From Myxococcota bacterium (lineage in GTDB: Bacteria; Myxococcota_A; UBA9042; PHBI01; JAWLBL01): DNA of 64,000 nt. Made by a program: the position numbers and the translations under genes. Where the stretch lies: positions 67,627 to 131,626 of the forward strand of contig JAWLBL010000015.1 in assembly GCA_041687695.1 (NCBI GenBank), written 5' to 3'. A model generated the notes under the pieces. That model made no database searches and was not told the origin of the DNA. It saw only the letters and a program-made list of their open reading frames with translations. Shown here piece by piece: positions 29,144-55,590 of this stretch; position 1 is the first letter of the stretch, and every line of letters starts with the position of its first letter.

Positions 29144-33393
<4,250 letters not shown>

Positions 33394-33394
<1 letters not shown>

Positions 33395-33984
33395 CACTTC
33401 CCTCCGAGAGCGTCGGCGACGCGGCGTTCGAGATCCGCCACTTCGGGGCACAGGCGCTTGACCCGCTTGTAGTTGGCGGCGGCCTCACGCCCCAGGGGCT
33501 CCCGGCCTCCACCGGCTGCCGCCGAGAGTCCGCGCTTTTGGGCATAGGGCCTGAAGTACGTTTCCTTGGGGTCCCGATGGCCACGCACCTTGGCCCAGGC
33601 CCAATCCTTAGGCAGGTCCTTCATAGCAGCCAAGAGCCACACTTCGACTTCTTGCCAAGCGTGCTCTGCGAGAAGGACCTTCCCAGCAGTTCCGAGGACG
33701 GCCTGCGCCTGTGCTTCGATGCTATGGAGCCTGGCTTTTCGGGTGGGCTCGCCGTCCCGATCCACCAGAATGAGAAAGAGCCGGGTCATGGGCCGCCAAG
33801 CGTCCAAGATGGAGCTGACAGTCGCCCAATCCAGCGCCTGATCCACCCCCTGGAGAAAGGGCTCCTGGCAGACCCGAACGCGCGCCTTGTAGCCCAGCTC
33901 GGTCATCATCCTGGTGATGAGCGGCTTGAGCATCGCCTCATCTCCTCGGCTACTCTCTGGGATGATGGTCACTCCGAGGGCCAC
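33394..33984 (-). CDS. TOPRIM-like protein (DUF4276/RloB-like)
   Basis: N-terminal IIPE..GD, ILVDRD (DxD), QEVEVWLL, DPK. Overlaps the ATPase gene. Confidence 0.65.
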
Positions 33985-35351
33985 GGCGATCCCTCCTCTT
34001 CATCGGGTTCCGACAGAGCCGCCGCGTCTTCGAGCCATCCCGAGGCCAGGAGGCGGCCCAGGTCGCGCGTCTGCAGGAGCCGCGCAATCTCAGGGAGGTC
34101 CGCGATGCGGCGGATGCGCGAGTGCGAGTCGTCTTCGGTCCGATAGACGAGCAATGCGTCACTGAGCACCTCGGATGAGACGTAGGTGAGCAGGGCCGGG
34201 TTGTGTGTGGTCGCGACCACCTGGAGATTGTGCTCCTCGCTGGCGCTCTGGATGAGGTCGAGCAGCAAGTGTAGCCGTGTCGGGTGAATCCCGGTGTCCA
34301 ACTCCTCGATGTAGATGAGCTCGTCCTTAGCCGTCAGCAGCGCCGACAGCAGGGCCAGAAAGCGCAGGGTTCCGTCACTGGCGCTGTAGGCCGACACGGT
34401 CTCGCCGGACGACTCGACGAGGTGCAGCAGAACCCGGCCCGAGAAGTCGTGCTCGAAGGTCAGGTCGATGGCGTCCATCGGCGTCAACACGCGAATCCAG
34501 CTGAGGACGATCTCCTTTCGGGCAGGTTCCCGGCATAGATTCATGAGCACGCTGGACAGATGCTCGCCTCGATCGCCGAGGACGGTCGTTCCGGGCGGTG
34601 ATGGTTCCCGCGCTGCGCGTGGCTCGATGTCGAAGAAGCGCATATGAGCGAGATGGTGACCCACCGTCCACGATACAGCCGTGGAATGCGGGAAGCGTCG
34701 CGAGCGACGGGTCATCAATTGCGTCAGGGCTGGTTTGCTCGACGCCAAGCGTGTTCGCCGCCTGTCCCACTCGCCGTGCCCTTCGAGGCGATGTTGAACG
34801 GCGACTTCGTGGCGTCCCCGCGTCTTGACGCTGTTGTTGTCGGGATGCGTCGACCAGATGGCTTTGGGCTCACCGGCTTTGCCGATCAAGCGGCCAGGCG
34901 GAAGGCTGTCGCCCTCGGGAAGGTCGAGTTGGGCTTCGATAACCGCTTCACGGACGACCCGAGGACCGAAGTCGTCGTCGCTGACGTCGACCTGCAATCG
35001 ATAAACGAGCGTACGGTCCACCGCAACCAGGACATCGCAAGCTACCATGAACTCGTGTTCACCATGGGTCACGACCTCATGGGCGCCCCCCCGGATGCCG
35101 GGCCACATGGGGATACCCCCGGGCCCAAACTTGCCTCCCAGGATCTCGGGCATGCTGAAGCCCAGGCCAACCCCGTGCAGCAAGCGCAGCGCATCACCCA
35201 GATTGCTCTTGCCCGAAGCGTTGGCGCCCAGGACCAGGGTCAGGGGCCCAAACTCCGCGACGGCGCCGCTCGGCGCCCCGAAGCTCTTGAAGTTCCACAG
35301 TTGTAGGCCACTCAGCACGACGTCCCCCGGCCGACCTGAATCCGAAGACAC
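33969..35351 (-). CDS. ABC-type (AAA_21-like) ATPase
   Basis: NFKSF, GANASGKS, signature SASDGT, IEELDTGIHP, TTHNP. Confidence 0.88.
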   Translation of the reverse strand: MSSDSGRPGDVVLSGLQLWNFKSFGAPSGAVAEFGPLTLVLGANASGKSNLGDALRLLHGVGLGFSMPEILGGKFGPGGIPMWPGIRGGAHEVVTHGEHEFMVACDVLVAVDRTLVYRLQVDVSDDDFGPRVVREAVIEAQLDLPEGDSLPPGRLIGKAGEPKAIWSTHPDNNSVKTRGRHEVAVQHRLEGHGEWDRRRTRLASSKPALTQLMTRRSRRFPHSTAVSWTVGHHLAHMRFFDIEPRAAREPSPPGTTVLGDRGEHLSSVLMNLCREPARKEIVLSWIRVLTPMDAIDLTFEHDFSGRVLLHLVESSGETVSAYSASDGTLRFLALLSALLTAKDELIYIEELDTGIHPTRLHLLLDLIQSASEEHNLQVVATTHNPALLTYVSSEVLSDALLVYRTEDDSHSRIRRIADLPEIARLLQTRDLGRLLASGWLEDAAALSEPDEEEGSPWPSE

Positions 35352-38300
35352 TCACCCCAGCAGGCGCACCCGAACGTTGCTGCCGGCCTTCAGCTGAGCC
35401 AGCAGCTTGTTCCTGATCTCGTCGACCAGCTGGTCGACCTCTTCCGGGCTGTTCACTTCGCGGTCCCGCAGCTTCAGGTTCACCTTGCGGACGACCACCT
35501 TGACGAAGTCGTCCAGCTTGTCGTGAGCCTCGTCGACCGCCCGGCGCAGCGTCTCGGGGAAGGTGTCGCGCAAGACGGCCAGCGAGGGAGCGATCGCGTC
35601 CGCCGAGGTGTCCGACACGGCCAGAACCAGGGGCCGCGTCACCTGATGGGCCTGGTCATTGGTCAGGGTGACGAAGCCCTCGCGCTGCTTCACCCGTTGC
35701 CGGGCGGACTCGGCCGCTTCCTCTTGCCAGCCCAGGATGCGTCGGCGTTCGGCGGCATAGGCCGCGGTCAGCGCGTCCAGATCGGGCGTCAAGCTGTCGG
35801 CGTCACGCCACGGCCGCTCGGCCGCCAAGTGGGAGTCGATGCGGTCGGCCGCGGCTTGCAATTCGGCGGGCAGCGCGCCCACCGCGCGAAGCTGCGTCAG
35901 CTGGTGGTCGCGCACCAGCCCGGCCCGGCGCAGCACGGCTATCGCCTCGTCGGTCAGGTCACCTTCGATGCGACCCAACAGGTCCAGCCCGTCGGTCAGC
36001 CTCTGCAGGTGCTTGGCGACGTGCTCGACGGTGGGGCGGGTCTGCCGGCTCTTGCCGACCGCCTCCTCCAGGACGCGGTACAGCTCGGCGAGCCTCGGCT
36101 CGGTTGGGCCGCCGGGCAGGCGCAGCATCTTGTCCTGGACCGCGCGCACCCGGCGGGCCGCTTCGGGGAAGTGTTGGGCGACCGCGTCGGCGATGGCGCC
36201 GTCCTCGCGCTCGAAGCGGCCACCGAAGGTCTTGCCGAACAGGTGGGCGATCTGCGCCCGCACCTGGAACGGCACGTCCTGCTCGCCGGCCGGGTTGAAG
36301 CTGGCCCGCCGAAAGGTGCGGTCCTTGTCGAACAGCTCTTGCACGCCAGCGTCGCGGACGTTGGTGATGACCACCCCGCCGTCCAGCTCGATCTTGACCT
36401 TGCCTCCGCGTAGCAACCCCGCCACGCAGGCCTTTACCAGGTCGGGCGAGAAGCCGTAGGGCGGCCCCCCGAACCAGGCCAGCAGGCTGGTCCCGGTGAC
36501 GCCCTTCTGGCCCTCGATGTAGCGCAGGACGCGGCTGGGGATCGGGCCGGCGCACGACGCGACCCAGCCGCCCGAGTCGCTCTCGCGCTCGAGGATGCCC
36601 AGCTCGGCCGGCAGGAACTTCACCGACGGGCCGGTCAGCCCCTTGTCGGTCAGCAGCTGCGCGATCTCGGCCGGGGTGACGGTGGTCATCACGAACTGCG
36701 GGTACAGCTCGGGCAGGATGCGGGTGGCGACCCCGGTCAGAGAGGGGCCGAAGGCGCCGCCGAAGTCGCGCGGCGACAGCGGGTGACCTCGGAAGTACAA
36801 GCGCCCGTAGAAGAAGCACTGGGCGACCGCCTTGTGCATCTGGGCGCCGAGATCCTCGGCCCGGCCCTTCTCCTCGATGAGCAGCTTCTGGCGGGCGACC
36901 GACATCGAGGCCCGCTTGGCCTCGTAGCGCTGCACCATCTGGCGCGAGCGGCCCAGCTCTTCGAGCAGCTCTTCGAGGGAGTCGGCTTCGCCCGAGACCC
37001 AGACCAGGCGTTCATTCAGCTCGGTCTCGGCGCTGCGTTTGACCCAGACGTCCTGCTCGCGCGGTCCATTGGGGAGGTAGCGGAAGTCCACCCGGACCGG
37101 GGCCTGCTCCTTGGGGCCTGGCAGCGTCTCGTCGCGATAGCGCATGCCGCCGTCCGAGAACACGCCCGCCCAGGGGAAGCCCCGCTGCTGCAAGCGGCCG
37201 CGCTCGACGCTGCCGAGCAGCTCGCCCAGCGCGAGGGCGACCATCTCGCTGCGCTGTTCGCTGCTGACCATCAGCTCGCGCCGCTCGCGCTCCCACTCCT
37301 CGCCGGCCGAGGACTGCACCTTGTAGCCGTGCTTTTCCGAGTAGCCCAGCAGGGTCTTGCGCCGCAGCGTCTCGAGCGCCTCCTCGACCCGGGCCTCGAG
37401 CCCGTCGGCGTCGAGCCGGTCGTACAGGCATTCGGCCACGAGGCGGGCGGTGGTGGGCACGGTGTCCTGGATGAGCTCGAGCAGGGCCACGACCTTGGCG
37501 ACCCGCTGGTAGAGTGGGTCCTCGCCGACCACCTGCGCCGCGATGCGGCCCAGGCTGTCCTGCACGTCCTTGTCCAGGGCGGTGCGTTGCACCTCGTAGA
37601 CGTCCTCCAGGGTGACCAGGGCGCCCACGGGTCGCTCGGCGAAGCCACGCTCTCGGAACAGCTCGCCCAACAGCTGCAAGAGGCCGCGGATGGCCTGGTC
37701 GTCGCCCTGTGCTCGGGCCGAGCGCGTGCGCAGCGCGGTCGTGATCTGAAGGAAGAGGTCCACCTGTGAGGGGAGCAGAGGGTAGGTCTCGACCAGCTCC
37801 TCGATGGTGGCGTTCTGGCAGCCGTAGGCGAACAGGGTCAGGTTCGAGCGATGGCGTTCGATGAGCTCGCGGAGGGCGGGCTCTCTGTCGCGGTGCTTTT
37901 CCAGAAGGCGTCGGTGGACCACGTCGCGGATGTTGGACGAGTCCAGGTGGACCCGCAGGCGCGGAGGGAAGCGGTCCTGGGCCCAGCTCAAGAAGCGGTC
38001 GCCCGCCTCTTGCTCGAGCTTCTGCTGACCCAAGGCCAGCAGCCAGACCCGGCCGCGAAGCCCGGTCCCCAACTCCGAGGCGAACGCGCGGAGCCGATCG
38101 ACCCGCTCCTCCTTGCCCAGGACGTACTGGGAGACCTCGTCGACCACCACGAACAGGGTGGCCTCGGGGGCGCGGTGCTCGAGCATGGAGCGCAGGGCGT
38201 CGACCGCCTCGCGAGGGGAGAGGTCCCGGTTGTGGGTGCCGCCGCGGGTAGCGAGCCAGGCGAACGGGTCGGGATAGAGCTTGGGGAACAGCTTGGACAG

Positions 38301-38996
38301 CACCATCGAGAACTGGTCTTCCGCGAACTCCTCGAGGGCTACCTCGGCCCAGGGCCGGCCCAGCTCGTGTTGGGCGGTCTGGAGGAACTGGGGCCAGTGA
38401 CCGTCCCGTTCGAGACGCAGCTCGAAGTCGGCCACCAGGGCGCTGGTCGGGCAGTAACCCAGGCGCATCTGCACCTGACGAACGATGGCGGCGTGGATGT
38501 GCTCGCCGTCACGGGCGCTGCCGCCTACGTCGAAGACCACCGCCTTGGGTTCGATCTTCTGGCGCAAACGCTTCCAGGCTTCGTGGAGCTGGTGGCTGAG
38601 CGGGGAGCGGTCGCGCTCGAGCCAGGCCTCGGCCAATGAGCGGCCGTCCGGGAGCGCGACCCCGTCCAGCGCCAGGCCCAGCAGCTTGGCGAAGCTGGAC
38701 TTGCCCGAGCCGTAAAAGCCCGAGATCCAGACGGTCGGTAGCTCGGGGCCTCCGGGGCGTTCCAACTCAGCGGCCATCGCTTGGAGTAGGCCCACATAGT
38801 GTTCATGGAGGCCGCGAGGCACGCGTCGGTAGGCCGGGGTACCGGGCTTGTGACCGCCGGTGATGATGTATTCGCGGACCTCGCCGTCGAGCTGGGCGGG
38901 TGTCTGCTCGTGGAAGTAGACGACCGGAGGGATGTCCCGGCTGACGTCCGAGGCGAAGAGGTCGCGGACCTTCATCGAGCCGATGGGGAGGGGCAT
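35352..38996 (-). CDS. brxC: BREX P-loop ATPase BrxC
   Basis: RDIPPVVYFHEQ, EVREYIIT, WISGFYGSGKSSF, VVDEVSQY, DRF, RLLEK, YP. Confidence 0.92.
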   Translation of the reverse strand: MPLPIGSMKVRDLFASDVSRDIPPVVYFHEQTPAQLDGEVREYIITGGHKPGTPAYRRVPRGLHEHYVGLLQAMAAELERPGGPELPTVWISGFYGSGKSSFAKLLGLALDGVALPDGRSLAEAWLERDRSPLSHQLHEAWKRLRQKIEPKAVVFDVGGSARDGEHIHAAIVRQVQMRLGYCPTSALVADFELRLERDGHWPQFLQTAQHELGRPWAEVALEEFAEDQFSMVLSKLFPKLYPDPFAWLATRGGTHNRDLSPREAVDALRSMLEHRAPEATLFVVVDEVSQYVLGKEERVDRLRAFASELGTGLRGRVWLLALGQQKLEQEAGDRFLSWAQDRFPPRLRVHLDSSNIRDVVHRRLLEKHRDREPALRELIERHRSNLTLFAYGCQNATIEELVETYPLLPSQVDLFLQITTALRTRSARAQGDDQAIRGLLQLLGELFRERGFAERPVGALVTLEDVYEVQRTALDKDVQDSLGRIAAQVVGEDPLYQRVAKVVALLELIQDTVPTTARLVAECLYDRLDADGLEARVEEALETLRRKTLLGYSEKHGYKVQSSAGEEWERERRELMVSSEQRSEMVALALGELLGSVERGRLQQRGFPWAGVFSDGGMRYRDETLPGPKEQAPVRVDFRYLPNGPREQDVWVKRSAETELNERLVWVSGEADSLEELLEELGRSRQMVQRYEAKRASMSVARQKLLIEEKGRAEDLGAQMHKAVAQCFFYGRLYFRGHPLSPRDFGGAFGPSLTGVATRILPELYPQFVMTTVTPAEIAQLLTDKGLTGPSVKFLPAELGILERESDSGGWVASCAGPIPSRVLRYIEGQKGVTGTSLLAWFGGPPYGFSPDLVKACVAGLLRGGKVKIELDGGVVITNVRDAGVQELFDKDRTFRRASFNPAGEQDVPFQVRAQIAHLFGKTFGGRFEREDGAIADAVAQHFPEAARRVRAVQDKMLRLPGGPTEPRLAELYRVLEEAVGKSRQTRPTVEHVAKHLQRLTDGLDLLGRIEGDLTDEAIAVLRRAGLVRDHQLTQLRAVGALPAELQAAADRIDSHLAAERPWRDADSLTPDLDALTAAYAAERRRILGWQEEAAESARQRVKQREGFVTLTNDQAHQVTRPLVLAVSDTSADAIAPSLAVLRDTFPETLRRAVDEAHDKLDDFVKVVVRKVNLKLRDREVNSPEEVDQLVDEIRNKLLAQLKAGSNVRVRLLG

Positions 38997-39012
38997 GGCG
39001 GGGCTCCCAGAA

Positions 39013-39684
39013 TCAATAGATGCGCGGCCGGTAGTCGTGGTCGGCTGGCAGGACGCCCATGAAGCGCAGGCCTGTCTGGCCTTCGCGGGTGCCCGGGTAG
39101 AGGAGCACCACCGGGACGTTGCCGGTCTTGCCATCGAGCTGCCGCAGCAAGGCGGACGACCGGAAGAAGGGGTAGACCGCGCCGGCGCGCCCGATGAGTG
39201 CGAGCGTGGTGTCTCGTCGATCGGGGTGCCGGGCGAGCTGCGCCTGAATGAGGTCGGCGCAGTCCTTGGCCAAGCCGCCCATGGGTTGGGACCGGTTGGG
39301 GGCGCTGGGACCCTCGATGACCGGGTCGAGCTTGCTCTTCAGGTGCTCGAGTCCGCGCCCCGGGTCATAGCGGCTGGTCATGCGCTCCCCCTCGATGACC
39401 TTCCGGGCAAAGTCCGGGCCCCTGGCGCGAATGCGGTCGAGCAACAGGCGGCCCAGGTCGATGGTGATGACCGACCAGCCGTGGGCGATGAGCTGCTGAG
39501 TCAGCCGCTGGGCCTCTCCCCGGACCTCTAGCTCGTCCGCCGGGCGGTATTGCAGGATGGCGAAGCGGTAGTTCCGCATCGTGCTGATGCTGGGGCCGTT
39601 GGGACCGAGCAGGTCGTTGGCCAGCCCGTGGAAGCTTTGACGTACTGGGGTCTCGGCGAGACCCGGCAGGGGCAGCGTCGTCAC
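39013..39684 (-). CDS. brxB: BREX protein BrxB
   Basis: RNYRFAILQY, AVYPFFRSSALL, PVVLLYPG, LRFMG, YRPRIY. GTGA overlap with brxA. Confidence 0.85.
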   Translation of the reverse strand: MTTLPLPGLAETPVRQSFHGLANDLLGPNGPSISTMRNYRFAILQYRPADELEVRGEAQRLTQQLIAHGWSVITIDLGRLLLDRIRARGPDFARKVIEGERMTSRYDPGRGLEHLKSKLDPVIEGPSAPNRSQPMGGLAKDCADLIQAQLARHPDRRDTTLALIGRAGAVYPFFRSSALLRQLDGKTGNVPVVLLYPGTREGQTGLRFMGVLPADHDYRPRIY

Positions 39685-40490
39685 GGATGGGCTCCCTGCT
39701 CGGAACGCGACAGGGTCTCCGTGGCCCACGAGGACAGGTCGGGATGGCGCAGGTTCAGCTCGACCAGCTCGCCCTGTCGACGGAAGGTCAGGGCGCCCTG
39801 TTGGGCCTGGACGCGAAGGGCGGCTTCCAGATCCGGCCCCGCCAGGCCGACCGAGGCCAGGTAGGGGTTGTCGACCAGGGTCCCGGCGATGCGGGTCTGG
39901 TGCAGCAGGTAAAGCACGTACAGCAGCGCCTCGTCCGGTACGCGCGGCCGCGTGAGCGGGCGCGGATCCCGGGTAGTGGCGACCAGGCCCGTGGCGTAGG
40001 CGGCCGACAGGAGCTTACTGGCGAACTGATTGCGGGTGGCGGCGGTCCAGCGGGCGGCACCTTGCTCGCGAACCCAGGCGGCGGCGATGTCGCGGGTGAT
40101 GGGGCGACCTTCGGTCAGGCGGCTGGGCAGGTAGTCGCCGGTGAACGCGCGGTAGAGCGGATCCGAGAGCTGCAGGTGCCAGTGACAGATGAGGCGCCGG
40201 GTGGCCGGCTGCATGAGGTGGGCCGGCCAGCGGGCCAGGACGGCCAGCGCGGCGGGGAACGCGTCGAAGCGGGCGCGCAGGTTCTGCAGCAGGATCTCGA
40301 CGCGCGGCAGGCTGCGAGGGCCGAAGACGAAGTTCTCGAAGACCTCGGTGGCGCTTGGGGAGCGGCCGTGTTGGCCGACGAAGGTCCAATAGGCGCGGGC
40401 GTGCTCGAGTTCGAGGGCTGCCTTCAACAGGCGCGTGTGAAGCGCGGTCTCTTCCGCCGGCACCGCGGCGGTGGGCTGAGCGAGGGTCAT
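39681..40490 (-). CDS. brxA: BREX protein BrxA
   Basis: HTRLLK, ICHWHLQLSDPLYRAF, SKLLSA, YVLYLL, NPYLAS. Lies between brxE and brxB. Confidence 0.8.
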   Translation of the reverse strand: MTLAQPTAAVPAEETALHTRLLKAALELEHARAYWTFVGQHGRSPSATEVFENFVFGPRSLPRVEILLQNLRARFDAFPAALAVLARWPAHLMQPATRRLICHWHLQLSDPLYRAFTGDYLPSRLTEGRPITRDIAAAWVREQGAARWTAATRNQFASKLLSAAYATGLVATTRDPRPLTRPRVPDEALLYVLYLLHQTRIAGTLVDNPYLASVGLAGPDLEAALRVQAQQGALTFRRQGELVELNLRHPDLSSWATETLSRSEQGAHP

Positions 40491-41092
40491 CGGGCGATCC
40501 GATAGAAGGGCAGCGGATAGTCAGCCGCGAGCGGAACGAGGGCGGCGGCGAGGCGCGCGGCAGCGACGTCCAGAGCCGGCGGGATGGAACCTGTGAGTCG
40601 CCGGCCGACCGGCTCGGTGGTGGTGTCGGGGCGGCCCTGCTCGCGGGCCCAGGACATGAAGGCATCCGCGTCCCATGCGGCGTCCCATGAGTCGCCGGTG
40701 CCGAGGACGCGGGCCAGGCCGGGGAGAGCAACGTGGGGGGCGCGGCCGGAGGCCTTCAGTAAGCGCAGGCGTTCAGTCAGGCGTTCGTCGACCGCTGGGC
40801 CGAGGTGGTAGAGGGAGACCAGCTCGTCGGGGCTGGAGGCGCGGGCGCGAGCAGCGGCGTCGATGCGGCGTGCGGCCTCTCGTGCGGCCTGCAGGGCGGC
40901 CCATGGGGCGGTACGCGGGGCCAGGTCCGACAGCAGGGCAAGTCCGCCATAGTCGGACGTCAGCAGGGTGCGCCACCAGCCGAGGCGGGGAGGCGCCTCG
41001 CCGGCCCAGGCGACGATGAGCTGGACGGTCAGGATGAAGTCCAGGGCTTGGTCGTCCGGGAGAGTCGAGGCTTGGGAAGTCGTCGAAACCAT
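40487..41092 (-). CDS. brxE: BREX type 6 protein BrxE
   Basis: ILTVQLIVAWAGE..RLGWWRT, YPLPFY. First gene of the operon. The frame stays open upstream to GTG 41242. Confidence 0.8.
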   Translation of the reverse strand: MVSTTSQASTLPDDQALDFILTVQLIVAWAGEAPPRLGWWRTLLTSDYGGLALLSDLAPRTAPWAALQAAREAARRIDAAARARASSPDELVSLYHLGPAVDERLTERLRLLKASGRAPHVALPGLARVLGTGDSWDAAWDADAFMSWAREQGRPDTTTEPVGRRLTGSIPPALDVAAARLAAALVPLAADYPLPFYRIAR

Positions 41093-41251
41093 GAGCCGCC
41101 CTTGCGCCGTGGTGGCGAGTTCAGGGGCGACGGTACGCGGGACGGCGACGGGACGCAACGCGGTCCAGCAGGTTGCTCGCCGGGCGATGGCGGGTATGGG
41201 GACAGGGTAGGCCACGCAGGGGGGGGGGCGAGGCGGGGCCACGGGGAGTTA

Positions 41252-41280
41252 AGTGTAGCCGGGTAGGCCAGGCGTGTCCG
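41252..41280 (-). promoter_or_regulatory. Predicted sigma70 promoter of the BREX operon
   Basis: Minus strand CGGACA (41280-41275), 17 bp spacer, TACACT (41257-41252), in a local AT-rich patch. Confidence 0.5.
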
Positions 41281-41559
41281 TTGGGGGTGGAGGAGGGGGC
41301 TGGGGAGGGCAGGCGTGTCGGTTGGGGGTGGAGGAGGGGGGCGAGAGACGACACGCGTGTCGTCGTCGGGTGGAGAAGGGGGCCGGGGAGGGACACGCGT
41401 GTCGTTGTCGGGTGGAGAAGGGGGCCGAGGAAGGACACGCGTGTCGGTTGGGGGTGGAGAAGGGGGCTGAAAGACGACACGCGTGTCGTTCCTTGGCGGA
41501 GAAGGGGGCCGAGGAACGACACGCGTGTCGTTGCAGGGTGGAAAAGGGGGTACGCCTGT
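41267..41559. repeat. Tandem array of 7 units, 42-bp period, with GACACGCGTGTC palindrome and GGGTGGAGAAGGGGG box
   Basis: Cores at 41269, 41310, 41352, 41394, 41436, 41478 and 41520. The first two are degenerate. Confidence 0.92.
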
Positions 41560-41565
41560 TCAGGG

Positions 41566-42324
41566 TCAGGCGGTCGGCTCGGGGACCGGGGCGGGCTGCT
41601 GCTTGGCGGCCGCGGCCTCGCGGGCGACCTGGGCGCGCAGGTCGTCGATGGGCCGGAGCGCCTCGCGGACGGTCGCGACCGCCTCGGGGTCATGCTCGTC
41701 CAGGCCGCCGATGAGCTTGCTGGTGTAGTAGAGGATCGCCTCGCGGAGCAGACGCATCGGCTCGGCCACCAGGACGGTCTCCTCGTCCACGGGCTCGCGC
41801 TTGCGGGAGATGCCCAGCACCTCGCCGTAGACCGCCTGGGTGGCGCGGACCTCGGTCAGGAAGTCGGCCCCGGCCAGCTCGATGAGCTCGGCTTCGAGCG
41901 CCTGCGCGTCGATGGCCTCGAGCCGGAGCTGCCCCTGGTTGTACTGCTTGTCATAGGGCAAGTTCAGAAAGCCCGTGCCGTCGGGCAGCAGGCGCTCGAG
42001 CAGCCGGGCCGCGCGCGCCGCCTTGGGATAGCGGTCGTGCGGCAGGCGGGCATAAGCGGTCAGCCGGTCGCGGAGGGCGATCCAGGACGTGTCGACCGCG
42101 ATGTCGGCCGGACGCTTGGCCGAACGCTGGGCCTCCTTGCTGGGGGGGCGCCGCACGGCGTCCAGCTCGACCTTGTGCTGGCCGATCTGCGCCAGCGCGC
42201 GGGCGATGAGCGGACCATGGTCGGGCGGGGCCGCGGCGAGCAGCGACTCGGCGAGGGAGCTGAGACGCGAGGCGTCGGCGGCGGGCAGGCTGGCGTAGGT
42301 CTTCTGATCGATGACGACGTACAT
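41566..42324 (-). CDS. Uncharacterised helical protein (252 aa)
   Basis: AAGGAGG RBS before ATG 42324, host-like codons, stop about 6 bp from the repeat array. Confidence 0.8.
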   Translation of the reverse strand: MYVVIDQKTYASLPAADASRLSSLAESLLAAAPPDHGPLIARALAQIGQHKVELDAVRRPPSKEAQRSAKRPADIAVDTSWIALRDRLTAYARLPHDRYPKAARAARLLERLLPDGTGFLNLPYDKQYNQGQLRLEAIDAQALEAELIELAGADFLTEVRATQAVYGEVLGISRKREPVDEETVLVAEPMRLLREAILYYTSKLIGGLDEHDPEAVATVREALRPIDDLRAQVAREAAAAKQQPAPVPEPTA

Positions 42325-42706
42325 GGGAGCCTCCTTGGGCGTGTGGTGGGCGTGCATGACGCGTTCGCTGGCCATGACAGCACGTCAGCGACGAAGCCTG
42401 CAACACGACCCGGGCCAAGCGAAGAGACCGGGCGGAGGCGAGCGTAGAGATTTCGGTCGGTTGGGGTCGGTTCGGGCAGATTCCTGCGGTGCGTTCGCTG
42501 GCCCTGGTTCGTGGCAATGGCGTCGTATGCGGGGATCACGGCGGGCAAGAGCGCCGGGGTGGCCGGCGCGGGGCCGGGCGGCGGCATGGGCGGCGCGGTC
42601 CTCGATGGCCCGCGGGGCAAGGTGCCGGTGTCGGCGACGTGGTCCGGAGCGTCGGCGTGGCGTCCCTGGGCGGACGGGGTAGGATGGGCGCGCGGGGAGG
42701 TGGGCG

Positions 42707-43237: not shown

Positions 43238-43384
43238 TCTGGCCGGATCGGGTCAGCCCCGGGAGGGCCTTCAGCCGGGTCGGGGCTCGGTGTTCGGCGC
43301 GAGCGCCTCTTCGAGCGCAGCATCGCCACCCGCTGCATCCCAATCGCGGACCGCTGCGACCTGCTGTGTGAGGGGGGCCGGCGA

Positions 43385-43848
43385 GGCCGGCGCGGGGCGC
43401 AGCGACGTTGGTCGCGCCGGGGGTGTCGTTCCGCCGCCGCAGGCGGCTGTGGACCGCGCAGGCCTTGCCTGCGCTGTGCGATGGTCGCAGCTGCTGTGAA
43501 TCCGTGCCGTCCATAGCGCCGGCGTGGCCGGCGCGGGGCGCAGCGACGTTGGTCGCGCCGGGGGTGTCGTTCCGCCGCCGCAGGCGGCTGTGGACCGCGC
43601 AGGCCATGCCTGCGCTGTGCGATGGTCGCAGCTGCTGTGAATCCGCGCGGTCCATAGCGCCGGCGTGGCCGGCGCGGGGCGCAGCGACGTTGGTCGCGCC
43701 GGGGGTGTCGTTCCGCCGCCGCAGGCGGCTGTGGACCGCGCAGGCCTTGCCTGCGCTGTGCGATGGTCGCAGCTGCTGTGAATCCGCGCGGTCCATAGCG
43801 CCGGCGTGGCCGGCGCGGTCCATAGCGCCGGCGTGGCCGGCGCGGTCC
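43385..43848. repeat. Three near-identical 141-bp tandem repeats plus 27-bp terminal duplications (REP-like)
   Basis: GCGACGTTGG at 43402, 43543 and 43684. GCGCGGTCC at 43786, 43813 and 43840. Lies between convergent genes. Confidence 0.9.
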
Positions 43849-55053: not shown

Positions 55054-55151
55054 GCGGATTCGCGGCGCCGCCCGGTCCGGCACGTGACGACTTCCCCTCG
55101 GGCCGGCTGGAAGCCAGCGATCCCAGCGGGGGGACGCTGCCGATGTGGTCG

Positions 55152-55590
55152 TCGGGCCGGCTGGAAGAGGGTGTCGTATCGACCCAGTCGCAGGTTGCCT
55201 TGGAGTGCTCCGGCTTGCCGGAGCCCCGGTCCCGGCGGCTTGCCGCCGGGTTCTGGCCGCCAAACCGGCGCAGCAAGCTGCGCCGAATCGGGGCTCCGGC
55301 AAGCCGGAGCACTCCGGGAGAGCTTCTGCGACACCCTCTGGAAACCGGCGATTCCAGGGGCTTGACGCTGCCGATGGGGACCGGTCGGGCCGGCTGGAAG
55401 AGGGTGTCGTATCGACCCCGTCGCAGGTTGCCTTGGAGTGCTCCAGCTTGCTGGAGCCCCGGAGCCGGCGGCTTGCCGCCGGGATCTGGCCGCTAAACCG
55501 GCGCAGCAAGCTGCGCCGAATTGGGGCTCCGGCAAGCCGGAGCACTCCGGGAGAGCTTGTGCGACACCCTCTTGAAACCGGCGATTCAGG
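55152..55590. repeat. Two 233-bp-period REP/REPIN-like units with nested inverted repeats
   Basis: GTGTCGTATC at 55171 and 55404. Each unit has GGAGTGCTCC(G/A)GCTTGC...GCAAGCCGGAGCACTCC and AGAGGGTGTCG...CGACACCCTCT arms. Confidence 0.85.

Follow-up and report, generated by a model that had tools for sequence, protein, structure and literature searches.

A divergent DUF6261-superfamily gene paired with a fixed-period palindromic satellite in a Myxococcota bacterium

Results

A gene followed by an array of palindromic units

The window studied here is a 64,000-nucleotide stretch of the genome of a Myxococcota bacterium (assembly GCA_041687695.1, contig JAWLBL010000015.1, positions 67,627 to 131,626). 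It contains the gene for a protein that we call P0001 and, after its stop codon, a tandem array of seven units with a period of 42 bp (Table 1). The units are marked by GCGTGTC anchors at 41272, 41313, 41355, 41397, 41439, 41481 and 41523, giving spacings of 41, 42, 42, 42, 42 and 42 bp; the single 41-bp step breaks the reading frame within the array. TRF returned a period of 42 with 6.7 copies and 80% matches, in keeping with the seven units recorded by a first-pass annotation of the same DNA; the array spans 41267-41550. The perfect 12-bp palindrome GACACGCGTGTC occurs five times in the window, every time inside the array, compared with 0.43 +/- 0.69 copies in shuffled windows, none of 100 of which reached five. 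Pairwise, units 1 to 5 are identical at 30-36 of 42 positions, and all seven units at 21-36 of 42.

The readings that the annotation had given for the variable five-nucleotide segment of each unit were confirmed in the sequence, as were the extension of the palindrome to 18 bp in the gene-proximal unit (41515-41532) and its decay in the two distal units. No general polarity of decay was found among 24 arrays (p 0.59), so the decay at this locus is not a rule of the family. Two further details needed amending. The second box, GGGTGGAGAAGGGGG, which had been placed in every unit, is exact in only three of the seven; and the gap of about 6 bp between stop codon and array is 6 bp only if the variable nine-nucleotide segment is counted with the unit, the distance to the last box being 15 bp. 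Fourteen of these 15 bp form a non-repeat leader, which is also found ahead of the closest paralogue's array (contig C18) and of a gene-less copy of the array (contig C49).

Table 1. Features of the P0001 gene and its array (positions in the window).
Feature	Position	Strand	Basis
Tandem array of seven 42-bp units (a single step is 41 bp)	41267..41550		TRF, anchor spacing
Unit 1 (gene-proximal) dyad, perfect 18-bp palindrome	41515..41532		sequence
Unit 2 dyad, 12-bp core perfect	41476..41487		palindrome count
Unit 3 dyad, 12-bp core perfect	41434..41445		palindrome count
Unit 4 dyad, 12-bp core perfect	41392..41403		palindrome count
Unit 5 dyad, 12-bp core perfect	41350..41361		palindrome count
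Unit 6 dyad, one arm decayed	41308..41319		sequence
Unit 7 (distal) dyad, one arm decayed	41267..41278		sequence
Box 2 of unit 1, recurs every 42 bp; second dyad axis position, 21 bp from the first	41536..41550		sister arrays
14-bp non-repeat leader, stop codon to first unit	41551..41564	-	comparison with C49 and C18
Gene for P0001, 252 aa, all-helical, DUF6261 superfamily, Pro-rich C-terminal tail	41566..42324	-	profile and model
AGGAGG ribosome-binding site, 5 nt before the ATG at 42324	42330..42335	-	sequence

Gene and array are flanked by brxE and a Coq4-like gene, with no ParA/ParB match. The brx genes beyond the array share the strand of the P0001 gene, and about 175 bp separate the end of the array from the likely start of brxE. 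They form a BREX-type operon (29144-41242, minus strand) of brxE, brxA, brxB, brxC, an AAA_21 ATPase with a DUF4276 partner and then pglX, in which the AAA_21/DUF4276 pair is inserted before pglX; the operon sits in a lower-GC island of about 16-40 kb. Searches of the locus found no terminator or promoter consensus, and neither Pfam nor PADLOC detected a toxin family. A weak sigma-70-like pair seen by eye on the minus strand (41252-41282; 8 of 12 consensus bases, below the scan threshold) overlaps the last, decayed unit and points to brxE. Two other repeats lie in the window: three tandem 141-bp non-coding units with a 27-bp tail (43377-43848), which belong to another repeat family, dispersed over the genome in 51 pieces by BLAST, and a 233-bp unit present twice in tandem (55107-55587, 91% matches).

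P0001 belongs to the DUF6261 superfamily

The gene had been annotated as an orphan, which did not hold: P0001 has DUF6261-superfamily homologues, and a profile search built on six sequences reached 1722 related clusters at 50% identity. All 30 matches in the ESM Atlas were DUF6261-bearing clusters, commonest in Myxococcota, with DUF6261 accounting for 12-38% of the members in the three clusters shown. P0001 itself has no PADLOC match and no Pfam match, falling below the PF19775 gathering cut-off, and PF19775 was matched at E <= 0.01 by 19 of 147 aligned relatives. The profile of these 147 sequences (A2) aligned with a profile of 28 PF19775-detected proteins over 221 columns with a probability of 99.25 (E 5.7e-20), and P0001 scored E 9.4e-10 among 1945 genes of its own genome in the profile search. 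Profile-level homology and the PF19775 matches among its relatives thus assign P0001 to the DUF6261 superfamily, of which it is, judged by sequence, a divergent member lying under the Pfam cut-off. HagB is presumably a DUF6261 member as well.

A structure model built from the single sequence was unusable (pLDDT 43) and was replaced by one built from 147 sequences (pLDDT 93.8, pTM 0.68). The latter is all-helical without beta sheet, in agreement with the helical protein announced by the annotation, and the ranges over which it aligned with other structures suggest a bundle of N- and C-terminal helices into which a four-helix bundle (about residues 65-178) is inserted. Foldseek with this model gave nothing at E <= 0.001 in the PDB or viral libraries, and the best match in a sequence search of solved structures had an E of 0.09. 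The best VIA-align Z, 9.5, fell on generic helical bundles, a modelling result that shows evidence for neither a known nor a new fold. No DNA-binding fold was recognised in P0001 by fold and structure searches, and the protein is acidic (pI 5.5; family median 5.7). Its conserved residues include R71, D74, D78, W81, R87, E130, R134, R160, H163, Y166, Y200 and R230. Neither P0001 nor its relatives matched an HUH, DDE, tyrosine-recombinase or serine-recombinase family or fold. The annotation had seen no Nop or Cas motif; Pfam likewise found no Nop, Cas, ToxN or ParB family in P0001 or the 147 relatives, and there was no Nop or Tas chain among the fold matches listed for the pLDDT-94 model. No fused form appeared among 8000 longer candidates, which is weak evidence, and plasmid, phage, viral and metagenome contigs gave no match to the single protein query, which reaches close relatives only.

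Arrays accompany the gene family

The criterion for an array was an identity of 60% or more across 84 bp, at a lag of 41-44 or 83-88, in a 700-bp flank. All nine profile-defined DUF6261-superfamily genes of this genome (eight at E < 1e-4 to the profile, the ninth weakly linked) have a downstream array, compared with 44 of 500 random genes of the same size that have one in either flank. In a sample of the phylum, 21 of 251 genomes contained the closest family and 16 of 201 contained PF19775. An array is present at 21 of the 31 closest-family loci examined (of 40 places), one of these positives being a gene fragment and one of the negatives probably a false match, and at 18 of 28 when three loci of this genome are set aside; at three loci the downstream flank was too short to score. 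PF19775 loci gave the same fraction, 18 of 28 (30 of 61 places, less two duplicates), with 14 arrays downstream, two upstream and two on both sides; one positive proved to be a simple hexamer repeat. Of 504 control windows drawn from 18 of the sampled genomes, 9 were positive. These figures bear out the annotation's suggestion that gene and array form one module, though kin are not independent and the counts therefore overstate significance. The loci with no array, 10 of 28 for PF19775 and 10 of 31 for the closest family, include some with short flanks. The array need not lie downstream, as the annotation's test had supposed: at the 21 positive closest-family loci it was downstream in 16 and upstream in 5. 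Array windows made up 2 of 458 in genomes without a detected gene versus the 9 of 504 in genomes with one, an underpowered comparison in which several of the nine are coding or of short period.

A screen by C-terminal tail, in which 20 of 24 genes had arrays, was discarded as circular because the tail pattern had been taken from array neighbours, and profile-defined sets were used instead. A second family of similar size, A3, has eight genes in this genome (L013, L017, L019, L022, L010, L025, L026 and L020; 220-290 aa, an IRxGxGHxDxAxD motif, no Pfam match) and occurs in 14 of 201 genomes, with an array at 11 of 20 foreign loci; profile comparisons did not demonstrate its homology to DUF6261. 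Six more array-linked genes (L012, L015, L016, L021, L024 and L027) encode proteins of 240-310 aa with Pro-rich tails ending in ...PVA/PDA-like residues and have no demonstrated homology to DUF6261 or A3. Beyond the DUF6261 genes, about 15 array-linked genes of the genome are without demonstrated homology to that superfamily.

The clustering with defence genes that the annotation had proposed to check was seen as an enrichment: 10 of 20 array-linked genes have a restriction-modification, toxin-antitoxin or transposase gene no more than two genes away, versus 0 of 20 random genes (Fisher p 4e-4). The same count was 3 of 8 among the eight other DUF6261-profile genes.

Fixed-period arrays across the genome

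The 7.97-Mb genome contains 328 non-redundant tandem arrays, 52 of them with a period of 41-44 bp, as against one at 37-40 and three at 45-47. Periods of 41, 43 and 44 are no codon multiples, and 88 of 113 arrays with periods near 21, 42, 63, 84 or 126 (21-bp arrays are also present) lie mostly outside genes called with our own codon-usage script and are thus non-coding. The fixed-period arrays of this one genome make up many unrelated sequence families. That of the P0001 gene has three gene-less sisters, on C49, C11 and C6, those on C49 and C6 being 91% homogeneous. The annotation had reasoned that array-less homologues, together with a repeat scattered through the genome, would speak against a module; homologues without arrays did not turn out to be the rule, whereas the same repeat does occur without the gene at these three loci. 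Ten of 15 multi-member array families include a gene-adjacent array, nine of them exactly one, and five include none, by a gene list that took in tail-defined genes.

Homology stops near the array edges in most of the 14 array pairs compared. The arrays of this locus (C15) and of C49 align over 255 bp at 79%, leader included, and those of C29 and C23 over 237 bp at 95%. Homology that ends in this way indicates that arrays move, or stay behind, without the gene. As for their intergenic setting, 36 of 84 arrays lie in convergent gaps and 15 of 84 in divergent ones. Some are rearranged about their dyads: the C11 array has a linker that is turned round between alternate dyads, and the direct 21-22-bp units of the C29/C23/C13 family change direction at a central dyad. 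At C22:81950-84424, two copies of a 41-bp array, each beside the same gene 3' end, bracket a 393-aa gene in an arrangement that resembles an insertion with a long duplication.

The palindrome of this locus recurs at 42-44-bp spacing at 12 loci in public genomes, with no profile match within 2.5 kb of any of them. Four of these genomes (two Pirellulales, one Polyangiaceae and one Amycolatopsis) had no PF19775 or A2 match, and only the Polyangiaceae genome matched A3. Amycolatopsis and Actinophytocola (L060-L062, L065 and L067-L070) have intergenic arrays with a 21-22-bp period whose units share this ACGCGT-centred palindrome; a search of one of the genomes gave no DUF6261 match.

Period and symmetry are conserved while the sequence diverges

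Across loci, the period and the dyad are conserved and the unit sequence is not. Array word overlap was 0.35 for the eight pairs of closely similar proteins versus about 0.09 for the other 182, although co-inheritance by itself would also leave close paralogues with shared array sequence. At positions 2-7 from the best axis, symmetry had a mean of 0.68-0.83 in 21 arrays, versus 0.56-0.62 in 210 column-permuted controls. The closest paralogue, a 58% identical protein encoded on C18, has a leader and first unit that are colinear with those of the P0001 gene without internal gaps, and its palindrome persists through changes in both arms at two positions. All 10 matches to an extended-site pattern fall in C15, C49 and the array of this C18 paralogue. 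Box 2 of the C6 and C18 arrays is a symmetric second dyad 21 bp from the first; at this locus that second dyad is half-decayed. A 5-2-5-8-5-4-5 double-dyad geometry with 9 of 10 pairs was found in 5 of 20 closest-family arrays (control 1.3%) and in 0 of 17 PF19775 arrays, the array studied here reaching 6 of 10; since it was inspection of some of these arrays by eye that first suggested the geometry, only two of them count as independent confirmations.

Discussion

Our data directly support the pairing of the family with arrays, a conserved period with locus-specific sequence, dyads, the joint duplication of gene and array, and gene-less copies. In the best reading of these observations, gene and satellite would together form a mobile module, and the protein likely binds the phased sites of its own array. 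We favour a model that we consider plausible, if short of probable, in which a DUF6261-superfamily gene is paired with its own fixed-period satellite and its all-helical product binds the palindromes as two-fold symmetric oligomers. These oligomers would align along one face of the DNA, one every 42 bp, that is, every four helical turns. Each paralogue may recognise, or at least prefer, its own array family, and such recognition would let selection keep period and symmetry while the sequence drifts. The module might then be a selfish or accessory element that spreads, frequently to defence islands, with arrays copied alone to other intergenic sites where they may still be recognised in trans. 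DNA organisation, segregation or titration of the protein are putative roles of the complex. Binding of P0001-like proteins to their own arrays would explain the fixed period, the retained symmetry, the free sequence and the indifference to side and orientation. Against it weigh the acidity of the protein, even with R71, R87, R134, R160 and R230 conserved, the absence of a recognised DNA-binding fold and the roughly one third of family loci without a detectable array, together with the same-palindrome arrays in genomes without a PF19775 or A2 match and the 5 of 15 array families without a gene-adjacent member.

Several known systems resemble parts of this arrangement. The sopC site of the F plasmid consists of phased units of about 43 bp with an internal palindrome, bound by the product of the neighbouring gene, SopB; other centromere or operator arrays share this arrangement. 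The units described here are similarly spaced and built, beside a single gene; in contrast to sopC-SopB, they are chromosomal, occur in many paralogous pairs and as orphan arrays, and have a partner with no ParA/ParB or helix-turn-helix match and, as far as close relatives are reached, no plasmid or phage match.

REP and REPIN elements provide a second comparison: the RAYT gene, encoding an HUH transposase, is flanked by its own palindromic repeats, which are dispersed as hairpin doublets. Shared features are a repeat family for each gene, gene-less copies across the genome and a bias to gene 3' ends; P0001, however, has no HUH (Y1) match, and its repeats are fixed-period tandem arrays rather than dispersed hairpin doublets. 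The main rival to binding follows from this likeness, namely that P0001 is an enzyme or adaptor that copies and rearranges its array, the orphans being non-autonomous copies. The presence of one gene-adjacent array plus orphans per family fits such an activity, as do copies that stop at the array edges (one pair at 95% over 237 bp), inversions located at dyads, the preference for convergent over divergent gaps (36 versus 15 of 84) and the strong conservation of D74, D78, H163, Y166 and Y200 in the family. We nevertheless consider it unlikely, given the lack of a match to any HUH, DDE, tyrosine- or serine-recombinase family or fold and given that the loci inspected by eye showed no target-site duplication.

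Bacterial satellites of constant length and variable sequence have been described in 20-21 nt and 52 nt classes by Subirana and Messeguer (PMC8161180), who, in their account of these classes, propose a protein polymerising on them without identifying one. Like the arrays studied here, these satellites are non-coding tandem arrays in several unrelated families per genome, with one fixed period of whole helical turns and with short motifs accompanied by their reverse complements (PMC8161180). The arrays of this genome differ in their period of 41-44 bp, or four turns, and in being tied to a specific gene family, there being no evidence of a dedicated protein in that account (PMC8161180). We class the locus as a four-turn class of fixed-period satellites with a partner gene family. 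A term search of the main text of a survey of prokaryotic satellites (PMC6749651) found no mention of 41-43 nt classes or of myxobacteria. Dispersed elements built of 41-nt tandem repeats are also found in Porphyromonas gingivalis, where MITE464/PgRS carry IS5-type terminal inverted repeats (PMC4596501); such terminal repeats are not evident here, and no partner gene is mentioned in the part of that article describing the elements (PMC4596501). In searches mostly at title level, with most subscription journals outside their coverage, we found no description of the gene-array pairing, and the papers returned for DUF6261 appeared unrelated.

The arrays might instead be host-type satellites maintained by a general factor, such as a nucleoid protein or topoisomerase, or by replication, which DUF6261 genes merely adjoin or carry. 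Most arrays of the genome have no such gene alongside, same-palindrome arrays occur in genomes without a detectable gene, arrays of this kind accompany A3, whose homology is undemonstrated, at 11 of 20 foreign loci, and fixed-length satellites have been described without a partner gene (PMC8161180). This explanation, which we regard as quite unlikely, accounts neither for the arrays at 9 of 9 family genes nor for the separate sequence family of each gene and the symmetric changes of the palindrome between paralogues.

In type III toxin-antitoxin systems, an upstream repeat array is followed by a terminator and an endoribonuclease toxin. The array could likewise act as RNA, its transcript being cut into hairpins of about 42 nt that bind the protein, as in those systems or in the manner of TIGR-Tas guides. 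The array lies directly downstream of the gene and co-oriented with it here, array-linked loci are enriched near defence genes, and the Bacillus 52-nt satellites are transcribed (PMC8625621). The array RNA also folds strongly (z -10.6 versus shuffles), as expected of any repeated palindrome, so the score does not discriminate between a DNA and an RNA role. Unlike a type III antitoxin, the array is downstream at this locus and at 16 of 21 positive loci, with no terminator and no toxin family. TIGR-Tas systems, whose defining features are a Nop domain, box C/D motifs and variable spacers (PMC12045711), likewise have an array of 5-15 short units that lies upstream or downstream of one gene, with repeats that vary between loci (PMC12045711). 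They differ from the present case, which has no Nop match, no box C/D, no variable spacers, a period of 42 rather than 36 and no fixed linker orientation (PMC12045711). Within the array, TGATG is absent from both strands and CTGA occurs once on the plus strand and not on the gene strand. Rfam gave no family at gathering score, only three weak miRNA matches far below it, and no Cas or ToxN match was found. The TIGR-like or small-RNA reading raised in the first-pass annotation thus fares poorly, since the units are near-copies (21-36 of 42 identical) without distinct spacers and the linkers invert in sister arrays. The inversion of linkers and of entire half-arrays, together with arrays on either side of the gene, favours DNA sites over an oriented RNA, and points to two-fold DNA sites, not guide RNAs, in the related arrays; we hold a role as RNA to be decidedly unlikely.

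A role of gene and array as regulators or members of the neighbouring BREX operon is highly improbable, close and co-oriented as brxE-brxA-brxB-brxC-pglX are: none of 20 other array-gene loci examined here has a BREX neighbour (Pfam, within two genes), sister arrays lie among unrelated genes, and no promoter consensus was found. BREX is a matter of neighbourhood and no component of the gene-array module. A neutral local VNTR unlinked to the gene, which near-copy units and decay at one end might suggest, is just as improbable and largely refuted by the association counts, together with the period peak and the symmetric divergence.

Satellites of fixed length and changing sequence have been described as unexplained (PMC8161180), and DUF6261 is a candidate partner family for them. 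If the proteins bind their own arrays, the pairing may explain the fixed repeat length of some bacterial satellites, an idea that binding assays could address with the matched and mismatched protein-array pairs that C15, C18 and C31 provide from one genome. We hold more tentatively a wider possibility, that DUF6261 and at least one further helical family are dedicated satellite partners, each paralogue reading and propagating its own 42-bp dyad array, with two dozen orthogonal pairs per genome and non-autonomous orphan arrays; such pairs would then be DNA elements of a new class, selfish or driven by conflict, whose code for recognising DNA can evolve. Should cognate binding or propagation hold, the module would be a new kind of element and possibly a source of orthogonal DNA-binding modules, and the large, uncharacterised DUF6261 family would gain its first function.
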